Assembly (NCBI GenBank): GCA_963555755.3
Contig: OY820905.2
Span: forward strand, 1,376,001-1,440,000
DNA: 64,000 nucleotides
Direction: 5' to 3'
Origin: Nitrospirales bacterium
Lineage (GTDB): Bacteria > Nitrospirota > Nitrospiria > Nitrospirales > UBA8639
Shown: positions 33,731 through 53,489 of the stretch, in pieces
How positions within the stretch are numbered: the first letter of the stretch is position 1
Layout of the letters: every line of letters starts with the position of its first letter
Position numbers and translations under genes: made by a program
The notes under the pieces: generated by a model
The model's database searches: none
What the model was told of the DNA's origin: nothing
Seen by the model: only the letters and a program-made list of their open reading frames with translations

Positions 33731-33898
33731 GGGACAGGGAAGGCCCCCATCATGTGGCATGGCAAGACCTGACCCACAACCATAAGTCAATACTCATGCC
33801 TGACCCCTTACCCTGACCAACCCGGTGATCCCCAACCCGACGAGAGTCTAGCAATTTAGAGTGCACTATGTGTAAGATATTGTGTAAAGGAGAAGCCT

Positions 33899-34098
33899 GT
33901 GCCCACAAATCTTGCCCTCAATGACAAATTAGTCAAAGAAGCGCAGAAGCTCGGCGGACATTCAACCAAGCGTGCAGCCGTTAATCAGGCCCTAACTGAA
34001 TATGTCATGCGGCGGAAACAAAAAAAAATCTGGAGTTGTTTGGGAAACTTGACTGGGATCCGACATACGATTACAAGAAAGCCCGGCCTCGCGGGTGA
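33899..34098 (+). pseudogene. VapB-family antitoxin, frameshifted in A-run near 34020
   Basis: MPTNLALNDKLVKEAQKLGGHSTKRAAVNQAL; shifted frame continues LELFGKLDWDPTYDYKKAR. Confidence 0.75.
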
Positions 34099-34493
34099 GA
34101 ACATTAGTTGACACGTCCGTCTAGTCCCTTGCCTTTCGCAAACAAGGTCCCGCCCAACATCCCGCAGTAATTCAACTCGCCACCCTAATTGAAGAAGAAG
34201 AAGAAATCGTCCTCATTGGTTTAATCATACAAGAATTTTTACAAGCCTTTCCCAACGAACCCACAGTTGAAAAAGTCACAGCCTACCTAGGCGTGTTTCC
34301 GATCATCAAATTGGAACGGATGGATTTCATTGAGGCCGCTCGGCTATTCCGCCGCAGCCGAGCCAAAGGATTTACGGTCGCCACACCCGATTGCCAAATT
34401 GCCGCTGCTGCCATCTCCTATGATTGCTCGCTACTCACCACCGATCAAGATTTTCATCGCCTGACCACCCTGTGCCCTTTGCAATTGTTGTAA
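34095..34493 (+). pseudogene. VapC PIN toxin with TAG at 34122-34124
   Basis: VRTLVDTSV*SLAFR...IIQEFLQ...DCQIAA...LLTTDQDF. Confidence 0.8.
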
Positions 34494-34612
34494 ATTCCTC
34501 TCGCCCTGAGCTGTGAAAATGAATAAGCGAGCGAATGGCGAGCGGCAAGGCGAAGGATCTCCGCTGGGCTTTCGAGACTTCACGTAGGTTTTCGGGTTGG
34601 TGCTCTGGCTGA

Positions 34613-34846
34613 GGGTCAGGTCTTGCAGGGCTGAGGGCTGAGGGTCAGGCTGAGGGGCAGGTCTTGCAGCAATACATTTTGGTTGACCTTACACGTGAGG
34701 TTCCTGCTTTAACCATTCCTTATCAATTTTAGAGAAAACGGCCGTGTTGGGATAATTTCCTCATAAGTCAATACTCATGCCTGACCCCTTACCTGAAATA
34801 AAAACCAAAACTCTCTTCCCTATGTGGCACTGCAAGACCTGACCCC
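34613..34846. repeat. module with inverted ends GGGTCAGGTCTTGCA / TGCAAGACCTGACCCC (homolog at 50066-50202)
   Basis: interior 34658-34720 identical to 50069-50131; AGAGAAAACGGCCGTGTTGGGATA shared. Confidence 0.85.
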
Positions 34847-34887
34847 CTACCCTTTATTTATTCTATTTACTATTTACTTTATTTATT

Positions 34888-50065: not shown

Positions 50066-50202
50066 GGTCAGGTCTTGCAGCAATACATTTTGGTTGACCT
50101 TACACGTGAGGTTCCTGCTTTAACCATTCCTGCAAAAAAAGTATCAATTTCCAAAGGCAGAGAAAACGGCCGTGTTGGGATATGGCATTGCAAGACCTGA
50201 CC

Positions 50203-51670
50203 CAATACTGTTCACTTAGATATCTTCGGTGGTTTGATGGATGGTGTCCAGTCCATTTGCGCAACGGGCGGTCTCGGGCGTTTGTACGGTGCGTATGGAG
50301 AGTTTCGGCGTTTCACCATCCTCGGCTTGATTTTTCCCCGGCTGGATTCACACAACAGTTTTGCCGTCGCCTCAAACAGCAGCCGATACCATGTTTTTTG
50401 GCGCTCAGGGGGGAAGGGCCCCAGATTGGGGCAGGGTTCGACGCACTAACTGCACCGTGGCCGTAAAAGATACTGTGCGGTCCGGGATGTCTGCCTGGGT
50501 GGCCCCTTGATACATCAACCAGCGCACGGCGTAGTGGGCCATCACCCATCCGTAGAACTCTTGACGCACCAACTCTGGCGTTTTACTGCGCAGGACGCGA
50601 CGACGTTGCCCCAGGTGCGTCTTCAGCTCATCAAACACCAATTCCACCTCCCAGCGCTCGTGATACAGTTGAGCCAGGTCCTGGGCGGGTGCGCCTTGGT
50701 CATCCAGCAGCGTGGTGACGAGACGGTACAGCGGTTCGCTATTGGGCCCCTGCGGTAAGACATACTCAATCACCCTGAGGGCGATCCCATCGATTCGCTT
50801 TCTTCTGGCGCGTTCACTGGGGTACAGACGGCTCAGGTACGAGCCATCGTCCAACAGCTTGTCAACCGGAAGGAGCAAGTGCTTCGGCATGCGCCAGAGC
50901 AGTTGCGCTCCGGTCTGAAGGCCGGCCTGCCAATGGGCGTACCCGACAAAGCCGCGATCGGCCATGCAGAGCATGTCGGGCGTGAGGCGACGCACCAAGG
51001 GCGCGGCCACCTCCCATTCGGCCTGCTTATAGGCCCCTAGTTCGGCATCCAAAATGGCGTGACTGGCACATTCCGTCAAAATGGCGCACTGGCTTGGGGG
51101 TAGCCGGCCTGCCCGGTTCGGCTCCCTGGGTACCCAAAGGCTTGCACAGTGGCTTCCTCATCCGGGACCTCAAAGTTGGAGCCATCTATCGCGACGAGTC
51201 GGTAGCCTGCAAAAAAGGCGTGGGCATGCTCTGGACGAGCCAACGGGCGCAAGCAGCGCTGCCCAATGGCTTTCAGCGCCTGCCACGTCAGCCGTGAGCG
51301 GGCTTTGCTGATGGCGGATTTGACAACGCTCACGGGAGCCACAGGTTGCTGGTCTTGCCAGGCCAGCCCTTGGGCCACAGCGGCAAACACCGCTTCGTAC
51401 GCGGCCTCGCTGTATAAGCTCAACGCCATGGTGTAGTACACCACGGCAGAAGCGGGAAAGGTGCGGACACGTTCACTGTTACAATGATGTGCGTCAAGTT
51501 CTTCGTTGATGATGGCCACCGGAAAGGCACGAGCCAGTAATCCCGTGCTCAAATAATCCGCCAATCGAGCCCCCGCCCCCAAGCCGACTTTCTTTCTTGC
51601 CATGTTGCCTCCTCCCAGATTACGTGTGGAGGCGAAGTATAACAGATTTTCATCTAAGTGAACAGTATTG
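50203..51670 (-). mobile_element. IS4-family element, copy 2 (more diverged; 1-bp deletion near 51091 splits the transposase)
   Basis: same IRs and TSD; 1468 bp versus 1469 bp. Confidence 0.9.
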
Positions 51671-51715
51671 AGACCTGACCCCCAACCTGACCCCCAACCG
51701 TTGCAAGACCTGACC

Positions 51716-53184
51716 CAATACTGTTCACTTAGATATCTTCGGTGGTTTGATGGATGGTGTCCAGTCAATTTGCGCAACGGGCGGTCTCGGACGTTTGTAC
51801 GGTGCGTATGGAGAGTTTCGGCGTTTCACCATCCTCGGCTTGATTTTTCCACGACTGGATTCACACAACAGTTTCGCCGTCGCCTCAAACAGCAGCCGAT
51901 ACCATGTTTTTTGGCGCTCAGGGGGGAAGGGCCCCAGATTGGGGCAGGGTTCGACGCACTAACTGCACCGTGGCCGTAAAAGATACCGTGCGGTCAGGGA
52001 TGTCTGCCTGGGTGGCCCCTTGATACATCAACCAGCGCACGGCGTAGTGGGCCATCACCCATCCGTAGAACTCTTGACGCACCAACTCTGGCGTTTTACT
52101 GCGCAGGACGCGACGACGTTGCCTCAGGTGCGTCTTCAGCTCATCAAACACCAATTCCACCTCCCAGCGCTCGTGATACAGTTGAGCCAGGTCCTGGGCG
52201 GGTGCGCCTTGGTCATCCAGCAGCGTGGTGACGAGACGGTACAGCGGTTCGCTATTGGGCCCCTGCGGTAAGACATACTCAATCACCCTGATGGCGATCC
52301 CATCAATTCGCTTTCTTCTGGCGCGTTCACTGGGATACAGATGGCTCAGGTACGAGCCATCGTCCAACAGCTTGTCAACTGGAAGGATCAAGCTCTTCGG
52401 CATGCGCCAGAGTAGTTGCGCTCCGGTCTGAAGGCCGGCCTGCCAATGGGCGTACCCGACAAAGCCGCGATCGGCCATGCAGAGCATGTCGGGCGTGAGG
52501 CGACGCACCAAGGGCGCGGCCACCTCCCATTCGGCCTGCTTATAGGCCCCTAGTTCGGCATCCAAAATGGCGTGACTGGCACATTCCGTCAAAATGGCGC
52601 ACTGGGCTTGGGGGTAGCCGGCCTGCCCGGTTCGGCTCCCTGGGTACCCAAAGGCTTGCACATTGGCTTCCTCATCCGGGACCTCAAAGTTGGAGCCATC
52701 TATCGCGACGAGTCGGTAGCCTGCAAAAAAGGCGTGGGCATGCTCTGGACGAGCCAACGGGCGCAAGCAGCGCTGTCCAATGGCTTTCAGCGCCTTCCAC
52801 GTCAGCCGTGAGCGGGCTTTGCTGATGGCTGATTTGACAACGGTCACGGGAGCAACGGGTTTGTGGTCTTTCCATGCCAGCCCTTGGGCCACAGCGGCAA
52901 ACACCGCTTCGTACGCGGCCTCGCTGTATAAGCTCAACGCCATGGTGTAGTACACCACGGCAGAAGCGGGAAAGGTGCGGACACGTTCACTGTTACAATG
53001 ATGTGCGTCAAGTTCTTCGTTGATGATGGCCACCGGAAAGGCACGAGCCAGTAATCCCGTGCTCAAATAATCCGCCAATCGAGCCCCCGCCCCCAAGCCG
53101 ACTTTCTTTCTTGCCATGTTGCCTCCTCCCAGATTACGTGTGGAGGCGAAGTATAACAGATTTTCATCTAAGTGAACAGTATTG
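51716..53184 (-). mobile_element. IS4-family element, copy 3
   Basis: same IRs; TSD AGACCTGACC. Confidence 0.93.
51918..53117 (-). CDS. IS4 family transposase
   Basis: near-identical to 46635-47834. Confidence 0.92.
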   Translation of the reverse strand: MARKKVGLGAGARLADYLSTGLLARAFPVAIINEELDAHHCNSERVRTFPASAVVYYTMALSLYSEAAYEAVFAAVAQGLAWKDHKPVAPVTVVKSAISKARSRLTWKALKAIGQRCLRPLARPEHAHAFFAGYRLVAIDGSNFEVPDEEANVQAFGYPGSRTGQAGYPQAQCAILTECASHAILDAELGAYKQAEWEVAAPLVRRLTPDMLCMADRGFVGYAHWQAGLQTGAQLLWRMPKSLILPVDKLLDDGSYLSHLYPSERARRKRIDGIAIRVIEYVLPQGPNSEPLYRLVTTLLDDQGAPAQDLAQLYHERWEVELVFDELKTHLRQRRRVLRSKTPELVRQEFYGWVMAHYAVRWLMYQGATQADIPDRTVSFTATVQLVRRTLPQSGALPP

Positions 53185-53489
53185 AGACCTGACCCCCAAC
53201 CCCCCCCCCCAACACTGACCCCCAACACTCTGGAAACCCAGCCACGGCTAGGACAAACGAAAAATATATTAAGTCAAGACCTGACCTCTCCCATTTGGCT
53301 ATTGGAGTGAAATATTCAACAGCCCCTGAATGCAATAACACAGGCCTGACCCTATTATGACCCTATTATAAGTCAATACTCATGCCTGACCCCTTATCCA
53401 AATGGAACCTTGCAAGACCCCTAGCCAGTGGAGGGGTAATCCGTGCCCCCAGTCCCGAGAACCGAGGGGGCTTCAACTCTTGTCGTGAA

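Follow-up and report, generated by a model that had tools for sequence, protein, structure and literature searches.

TIRtrons and their enzymes, the TIRYTs, were named in 2013 (PMC3733652) for elements in which a Y1/HUH gene with a DnaA-like or helix-turn-helix (HTH) tail is flanked by terminal inverted repeats (TIRs), and whose repeats also occur dispersed, as single, paired and clustered copies. TIRYTs form TnpA-Y1 subclass 2.1, with repeats fitting GGGGWSAS (10.1101/279083), which is equated with RAYT group 1 in 10.1101/2020.03.09.984088 (see also PMC5581495) and is the second largest group of Y1 enzymes, present in 14.9% of strains (10.1101/279083). Published sources are cited here for what their accessible text contains; there, the TIRtron accounts are silent on where the enzyme cuts and how ends are joined, and mention neither micro-duplications nor a strand bias, long direct repeats or guests. 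Here we describe a stretch of 64,000 nucleotides from a Nitrospirales bacterium (C1:1376001-1440000 of the 4.6-Mb genome G000; the window, at its full length), in which a repeated motif is the TIR of TIRtrons, elements of the HUH/Y1 type. The window itself contains only TIRtron ends, mini-elements (minis) and stacks of ends, the enzyme genes lying elsewhere, and several of its ends are occupied by an IS4-type insertion sequence (IS) or by group II introns. G000 also differs from the published accounts in that eight end families coexist and stack.

Each guest has precedents. IS4321/IS5075 reportedly target the terminal repeats of Tn21 (as a title has it), and IS231A is said to insert in Tn4430 ends; like the IS4 described here, these are IS specialised on the terminal repeat of another transposon, but they belong to other enzyme families or subgroups, use Tn3-family hosts and are single guests rather than two per site. 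Closer is ISRm22 (IS4 family, PMC1525189), all or nearly all copies of which lie in a Y1-associated dispersed repeat; its target is the palindromic axis of a repetitive extragenic palindromic (REP) sequence with 6-bp repeats, whereas here it is a non-hairpin TIR word with 10-bp repeats, and relatives span 58-97% identity. Among introns, RmInt2 in the inverted repeats of ISRm17 (PMC4615759) is likewise endonuclease-less and biased to the lagging-strand template, but belongs to class D, uses its exon-binding site 2 (EBS2) and is described for one IS in one strain, whereas the introns described here form a clade in several phyla, with no evident EBS2 pairing and with EBS1 retuned across end types. 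Three intron target types are distinguished in the accessible text of PMC4424553, the TIRtron-end type not being among them, the corresponding text of PMC3552965 does not mention targets, and IS4-subgroup targets are listed in a figure of PMC2266710. In the literature searched, which lay outside most subscription journals and some figures and supplements, TIRtrons were found only in the 2013 survey, a 2018 survey and, as subclass 2.1 or group 1, two further papers; neither bench work on TIRtrons, nor a mechanism for them or subclass 2.1, nor an account of an IS4 or intron occupying their ends was found there, and for the motif sequences themselves the matches listed included only unrelated titles. 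The kind of element is already known, and its double colonisation and join rules exceed the literature found.

The motif TGCAAGACCTGACCC occurs in 15 exact copies in the genome versus 0.01 expected under an order-4 Markov model, and AAGATTTGACCC in 67 versus 0.96, so that their frequency is far from random. The window holds five exact copies of TGCAAGACCTGACCC (34831, 46419, 50189 and 51702 on the plus strand; 34627-34613 on the minus strand) and three with one mismatch (33761 on the plus strand; 34668-34654 and 50079-50065 on the minus strand), the last being split by a group II intron with its other exon at 48091. A sequence-only reading of this DNA had placed the motif at these positions, and its coordinates are confirmed, although the copy at 53275 differs at three positions and is a member of a sister end family (F7); the sister 29-mer was found three times as reported (33782, 34763 and 53368), and the variants at 5966, 6000, 11761 and 11964 and the split one at 3145|5886 are all present. 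Eight patterns drawn from gene-flanking ends and intron targets, with micro-duplicated copies counted, yielded a catalogue of 202 ends at 134 genome loci in eight families, 171 of them outside crude open reading frames (ORFs). The window copies fall in five of these: F1 (TGCAAGACC), F2 (CAACCAAAGATT), F3 (the 29-mer), F4 and F7. F1, F3 and F4 ends read GGGGTCAG, while F2 and F5 ends read GGGGTCAA, the last base of which departs from the GGGGWSAS consensus. The ends are clustered (47% of gaps below 10 kb versus 25% if uniform), but they are spread genome-wide and are not specific to the island. With most of them outside crude ORFs, they may plausibly offer guest elements a safe harbour.

The same reading had proposed a trans-acting system with its enzyme outside the window and pointed to HUH/Y1 (RAYT-type) transposase genes with similar ends, both of which are borne out. 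None of the 17 Y1_Tnp matches in the genome lies in the window, and ends bracket Y1 genes elsewhere: six intact genes (292-326 aa) in G000 are tightly flanked by ends that read outward, and in many cases the gene's stop codon is part of the TGACCCC of the bracketing end. One Y1+HTH gene lies between F2 ends of the AAAGATTTGACCCC variant (C1:761602-762613; the same end as window 5886..6023), another between F3 ends, i.e. the 29-mer (C1:1146651-1147657; the same end as window 33782), a further gene is F4-bracketed (2922735-2923727), and F5 ends bracket three gene copies. For F1, a complete element is found in a congener (G002), where two F1 ends (TGCAAGACCTGACCCC) surround a 282-aa Y1+HTH gene; in G000, three F1 ends have relics of this gene next to them (51-59% identity). 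Y1_Tnp is combined with a C-terminal Bac_DnaA_C/HTH domain in five of six proteins tested (a 230-aa protein lacks the HTH), and the HUH and tyrosine columns are invariant in the TIRYT alignment. A structure model of modest confidence (pLDDT 68), which serves only to confirm the fold, best matched TnpA-REP (4ER8) and also matched IS608/ISDra2 TnpA (2VJV, 2XMA). With a Y1 gene directly flanked by TIRs, the GGGGWSAS terminal motif and C-terminal Bac_DnaA_C/HTH_23/HTH_28 domains, the system is, as judged from sequence, a TIRtron/TIRYT system of TnpA-Y1 subclass 2.1.

Two neighbouring groups were considered and rejected. REP/REPIN-RAYT systems (subclasses 2.2 and 2.5) do not fit, since the flanks are TIRs and not GTAG-tagged hairpin REPs, and the REP_Tyr_transpos model NF047646 scored 62 against a cut-off of 80 (one protein). 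IS200/IS605 (subclass 1.1) has a TnpA of ~150 aa and subterminal hairpins, against 230-326 aa for the end-bracketed proteins, and NF033573 gave 13 bits against 55; separate IS200-like genes are present in G000 without bracketing by TIRtron ends. IS200/IS605 peel-and-paste elements and REP/RAYT systems share with TIRtrons the HUH/Y1 fold and a lagging-strand-template preference (10.1101/279083), but they read subterminal hairpins, whereas TIRtron ends are inverted repeats at both element termini.

All three IS4 copies in the window (46433-47901, 50203-51670 and 51716-53184) duplicate AGACCTGACC, as had been noticed. Each of the 21 copies in G000 has a 10-bp duplication and 19-bp inverted repeats, the duplication being exactly AGACCTGACC in 15, and 19 of the 21 lie in F1, F6 or F7 ends (classed by eye), an enrichment with p=1e-4 against non-coding look-alike words within one mismatch. 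An IS4 is held by 12 of the 18 catalogued F1 ends and by none of the 87 F2 and 24 F3 ends, whose word differs; orientation within ends is free (11 to 10). The transposase is encoded by a single DDE ORF (PF13006, Nterm_IS4, and PF01609) with an invariant YREK motif (Y314-R317-E321-K328), and its subgroup is assigned from 46% similarity to ISBvi1-family proteins. Relatives were collected from 80 metagenome loci (58-97% identity), and 107 of their 132 readable flanks are within two mismatches of AGACCTGACC, versus 55 of 40000 by chance. Their word is asymmetric, with A at position 3 in 90 and at position 8 in 98 of the 107, and with arms GCA and CC; the transposase would read about GCA-AGACCTGACC-CC as double-stranded DNA. 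TIRYT pieces lie within 600 nt in 11 of these 80 short loci, and at two metagenome loci one end is common to an IS4 and an intron of the guest clade. Six plasmid relatives (42-46%) use other sites, and of 300 other genomes sampled from the phylum one has the IS4. In an RNA run, a single contig connects an IS4 end with an F4 TIRtron end; G000 lacks this join, which is a one-contig hint of ongoing targeting. Two F6 ends (C1:1019971 and 4384766) continue into a different IS-like terminus (YAATACTCCGG...), which may belong to a second IS4-type element that exploits TIRtron ends.

Both introns in the window (48092-50065 and 3146-5885, minus strand) have YTGACC immediately before their first base and C as the first base of the downstream exon, in agreement with the sequence-only reading, and the landing of both element classes in ends extends to the genome (19 of 21 IS4 copies; 11 to 15 of 17 introns). 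G000 carries two related introns, with reverse transcriptases (RTs) 59-60% identical, and all 17 of their 5' junctions follow YTGACC, with 3' exons starting C. Their group II identity is indicated by the RNA matches (RF02005 and RF00029), an ORF with RVT_1 and GIIM domains and the pairing of EBS1 with the intron-binding site IBS1, all of which are present. EBS1, GGTCAG, pairs with the target at six of six positions, G-U pairs included, in all 15 G000 copies that keep it, and 15 of the 17 introns lie on the lagging-strand template versus 62 of 172 ends (p=1e-5). No spliced join was found among the contigs of one RNA run, and inspection by eye of the loop before d3 revealed no evident complement of exon bases -7 to -13 that would serve as EBS2. 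In quick trees built after a screen of 80 related loci, the guest introns form one clade (21-23 rows, SH-aLRT 96-97) that extends over several phyla and is found in five of the 300 other genomes of the phylum sample; locus L084, which also targets AGACCTGACC, falls outside it and is weakly placed. Clade introns start GUUCG, GUACG, GUAUG or GCAUG, and EBS1 tracks the target in other genomes (GGACAG with CTGTCC, GGACAC with GTGTCC, GGGAGT with ACTCCC): among 13 pairings read, ten are 6/6, and the others are 5/6, 4/6 and, where a contig edge cuts the site short, 5/5. Examples of matched targets are F3 in G309 and, each in its own genome, F8 and a GTGGTCTGTCC end. The intron RNA would pair EBS1 with YTGACC and insert mainly into the lagging-strand template, and the clade favours TIRtron ends, though perhaps not exclusively. 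By their flanking sequences, relatives of both guests use the same word elsewhere, non-exclusively.

A TIRtron end is laid out as inner repeat, TGACC, CC, four variable bases and then foreign DNA. Among 172 free ends examined, 32 joins could be traced through another genomic copy of the neighbouring sequence, of which 12 are flush at +6|+7, 13 within one base and 7 further off; for 19 of the 32 the neighbour's other copy lies within 15 kb. The base after the join is C or T in 154 of the 172 ends (86 of the 101 without duplications). Tandem copies of the end's own last 5-56 bases follow 71 of the 172, versus 27 of 1280 control words, and these micro-duplications are fixed at their outer edge and vary at the inner one; IS608-type moves are not known to leave duplications. 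Unpaired ends have GGGG on the leading-strand sequence in 71 of 94 cases (46 of 58 clusters, p=8e-6). The bias is seen in each replichore and whichever origin estimate is used, and is missing from control words, of which 604 of 1281 lie the other way. There is also one 2,025-bp perfect direct repeat, bounded on one side by a left end and on the other by a right end; it flanks a three-mini composite (C1:4098342-4108415), its inner edges being the left and right end.

We consider it likely that TIRtron ends are colonised by a sequence-reading IS4 lineage and an intron clade, and that the TIRtron enzyme acts during replication, with a nick in one strand 6-7 bases beyond TGACC and a separate joining of each end to new DNA. 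The account starts from what is observed: ends are linked to genes and receive insertions, EBS1 pairs with its targets, the junctions lie at a defined position, and ends have micro-duplications and are strand-biased. On it, the TIRYT HTH would bind the inner ~25 bp of the end, and the HUH tyrosine would cut the GGGG-reading strand just outside NNNN-GGGG and stay on the element's 5' end. This tyrosine-held 5' end would then be joined to a 3' end at the fork (of the nascent strand or the sister copy), with little sequence demand beyond a purine. Joining a few bases into the element's own copy would give the micro-duplications of 5-55 nt, and joining further away would give unpaired ends, stacks, truncated neighbours and kilobase direct repeats. 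This scheme of HTH binding, GGGG-strand cutting and fork joining, taken as one, we regard as having about even chances. A wider proposal, that TIRYTs in general differ from peel-and-paste and cut-and-paste transposases in being replication-coupled joiners that act on one end at a time and can ligate it to nearly any 3' end at the fork, producing duplications of 5 bp to 2 kb and an integrase-free shuffling of toxin-antitoxin (TA) and Rhs genes, with ends common enough across phyla to sustain a DDE lineage and a retuning intron clade, is offered tentatively and may well prove too broad.

Several results weigh against this account. Two G000 IS4 copies lie outside ends, as does a 90%-identical copy in another genome (G318), judged from its single readable flank. 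Pre-set end patterns place only 11 of the 17 introns in ends (p=0.10 against non-coding YTGACCC words), and the count of 15 (p=4e-4) needs four near-variants read by eye; outside G000 about 9 of 20 readable intron targets match TIRYT-adjacent end types (by eye), and a TIRYT piece lies within 1.5 kb in none of the 80 intron loci. A search of G000 for an intact F1-type enzyme found none. The 32 traceable joins include four rows of one array, and seven rows are off by 2-6 nt. Micro-duplications show no association with strand (p=0.26), and the origin was placed from GC skew, 206 kb from dnaA, both choices yielding the same bias. Among 39 outward pairs, few of them testable, none had its two flanks united at an empty site elsewhere, and the congeners have diverged too far for the island to be compared between strains.

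The main rival to a nick in the GGGG strand is the opposite chemistry, in which the TGACC strand is nicked and its free 3' end re-primes on itself by slippage and then switches template. It would explain why repeat units cluster at 5-6, 11-12, 17 and 23-25 nt and start at annealable T/C runs, and the C or T that begins 154 of the 172 joins could then be a 1-nt microhomology; 8 of the 32 traceable joins do have microhomology of 1-6 nt. However, 12 of the 32 are flush and another 12 have extra bases, so that most joins need no microhomology, and since HUH enzymes ligate through a 5'-phosphotyrosine, flush joins are directly explained by GGGG-strand cutting; free-3'-end slippage is, in our judgement, unlikely, though a serious contender. 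A different question is whether the guests use the enzyme's own nick. The sequence-only reading held that unrelated element classes break the motif at the same position, which is true on the map, but the bonds that IS4, intron and TIRtron would break are not the same. DDE transposases act on the top strand at the left edge of the duplication and on the bottom strand at the right edge. For the IS4, this puts one cut just ahead of AGACC in the TGACC strand, and the other at TGACC|CC in the opposite strand. The intron's point of entry is TGACC|CC in the TGACC strand, and the TIRtron joins lie 6-7 nt further out, so neither guest appears to use the enzyme's nick. Both insertions part the inner repeat from the outer join site, and the end would therefore be disabled. 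That the IS4 and the intron hijack a nick or single strand made by the TIRtron enzyme would account for the shared map position TGACC|CC and suits an intron that lacks an endonuclease domain and an evident EBS2, but in addition to the 6-7 nt that separate the enzyme's joins from it, the 10-bp duplications of the IS4 are of the ordinary kind whichever way it is inserted (11 to 10), F1 lacks an intact enzyme in G000 and yet 12 of 18 F1 ends hold an IS4, and EBS1 pairing alone sets the intron register, all of which makes hijacking very improbable.

The guests might instead be unspecialised, their short targets (a palindromic preference of the IS4, 6-7 nt of EBS1 pairing) and purging elsewhere leaving a pile-up in non-coding repeats. 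Ends supply 265 of the 576 non-coding YTGACCC words, a background against which the 11 strict intron matches are non-significant, only six exact AGACCTGACC words exist that are part of neither an end nor an IS4 copy, the sites of distant IS4 relatives bear a loose resemblance to it (GGYYTARRCC-like, by eye), and five intron copies in one genome (G281) have mixed targets. Against such passive accumulation, the word of the IS4 relatives is asymmetric (A at positions 3 and 8, arms GCA and CC) rather than a symmetric mix, all four single-mismatch IS4 insertions in G000 are in ends although 224 of the 265 free words of that kind are not, and EBS1 switches among GGTCAG, GGACAG and GGACAC, the cores of different TIRYT-adjacent end types; we therefore hold accumulation by purging to be improbable. 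A host-serving role has also been weighed, in which ends are recombination sites of an integron-like cassette system shuffling TA pairs and Rhs tips. Motif copies had been said to border TA operons and truncated genes, and they do so above chance: 16 of 73 toxin genes of four TA families lie within 700 nt of an end versus 5.4% at random (12 of 32 PIN, 2 of 18 ParE, 2 of 14 HigB and 0 of 9 BrnT), while control ends of two other multicopy IS are near 3 of 73 versus 3.1% at random. In addition, nine F1 ends split one Rhs locus of G002 into pieces, the vapBC pair of the window has an F1 end upstream in G002 too, and subclass 2.1 enzymes co-localise with prochlorosin genes (10.1101/2020.03.09.984088), although the authors of that work withdrew the causal claim. 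Most ends near toxins point at the toxin's 3' side, an orientation that fits end-driven deletions halting at addictive genes as well as capture, and deletions that stop at such genes would be expected to leave ends mostly facing that side. The joins fall at arbitrary neighbour positions, often within IS or intron copies, with no repeated cassette boundary; the window's vapBC is broken; and the idea of an island organised by cassettes is met by neither a clean empty site nor a cassette in common for any of 39 end pairs, few of them testable. The window's one integrase-family ORF (16073) lies away from ends, in a check that made no direct attC or IntI search. A cassette function of the ends is possible, and we think it distinctly improbable.

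Colonisation of TIRtron ends by guests that read their sequence is clearly parasitism of a nested kind, in which one mobile element supports two others unrelated to each other, and G000 makes the TIRYT mechanism directly testable as to strand, bond (+6/+7), acceptor base and fork direction. The intron, with a target of ~7 paired bases, and the IS4, with a long asymmetric one, could be site-specific insertion tools. One-end joining, if true, would be a new bacterial route to local duplication and gene shuffling.

In the window, a higBA TA pair (33149..33730, plus strand) lies on the inner side of an unpaired F1 end (TGCAAGACC type, one mismatch; 33752..33780, plus), which stands directly behind it. 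An unpaired F3 end, the 29-mer, is stacked on this end and is followed by degenerate micro-duplications (33782..33835, plus). The vapBC pair (33899..34494, plus) sits between inward-pointing ends, with an internal stop in the toxin gene and an apparent frameshift in the antitoxin gene; its homologue in the congener has an F1 end just upstream as well, in a different context. It is followed by the left part of an F1 mini, with micro-duplications ending TCAG (34608..34754, minus; 84% alike to 50066-50182), and by an F3 end (34763-34792) and an F1 end (34822-34850; together 34763..34850, plus). The F1 end at 46410..47917 (plus) is occupied by IS4 copy 1 (46433-47901), which encodes an intact 399-aa transposase on the minus strand and is flanked by its 10-bp duplication (46423-46432 and 47902-47911). 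An F1 mini of ~137 bp (50066..50202) holds guests in both ends. Group II intron A (48092..50065, minus) is inserted at TGACC|C of its left end and encodes an RT/maturase of 445 aa without endonuclease (48240-49577), its EBS1, GGTCAG, lying in the loop 49864-49885. IS4 copy 2 (50203-51670, frameshifted) is in the right end, where its duplication and end micro-duplications rebuild a second target (50203..51715, plus), and IS4 copy 3 (51716-53184) is inserted in this duplicated end, again with a 10-bp duplication (51716..53194, plus).

Next to copy 3, a stack of same-facing ends from four families (53195..53426, plus) abuts the 3' end of a vapC gene; it comprises F1 remnants, F7 (53265-53292), F4 (53332-53357), F3 (53368-53397) and a degenerate F1 end (53408-53426), and its part 53205-53360 recurs at C1:1572609 (99%). 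The adjoining vapBC-type pair (53490..54191, minus) consists of a PIN toxin (53490-53897) and an 88-aa partner without a Pfam match. Far to the left, group II intron B (3146..5885, minus), of intron A's clade and with its ORF mostly lost, is inserted at TTGACC|C of an F2 end and nests a second, more distant group II intron (about 3250-5243). Intron B is in this sense a twintron; the RT of the inner intron (3445-4758) has about 14 copies in G000, several of them nested in B-type introns. F2 ends with micro-duplications follow (5886, 5966 and 6000; 5886..6023, minus), and an outward-facing F2 pair with 212 bp between its ends is found at 11757..11981, the left end being flush-joined to the middle of a multicopy sequence.

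Minis with unrelated inner sequence converge on 126-144 bp (F1, F2 and F6) or 67-72 bp (F8) between end motifs. An origin of the ~134-bp minis as simple deletion products of an intact TIRtron was rejected, only ~27 bp per end being in common (by eye). In three runs (X1, X3 and X6), contigs join the IS4-free right end of a 50066-type mini to the F1/F3 stack (window 33755-33811), with a depth 3-13 times that of the locus; G000 does not have this join, and the same runs carry an insert of ~184 nt at 34541-34544 that is lacking in the window. The 14-kb second contig of G000 (C2) consists of an IS copy and a 99.98% copy of C1:4141231-4153174, and may be an assembly duplicate or an excised form.

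The divided Rhs locus of G002 (L050, G002:C46, 484-6000) contains, besides its nine F1 ends, one intact TIRtron, two minis of ~133 bp and orphan C-terminal pieces between them. The window encodes a 1966-aa Rhs protein (37293-43193, minus) with SpvB, TcdB_toxin_midN and FG-GAP domains, resembling a Tc B-C shell, with a paralogue at C1:235565-238606 and homologous pieces on the same G002 contig. The 3' end of this gene abuts one of two multicopy IS (34891-37295 and 44470-46376; at least 14 and at least 29 copies) whose ORFs contain a DruA domain (PF14236), in the abutting element beside an IS66-type transposase and in the other fused to a DDE_Tnp_1-type transposase. At the right border of the island, six to seven tandem 91-bp repeats (54272-54919) lie just downstream of glmS (55107).

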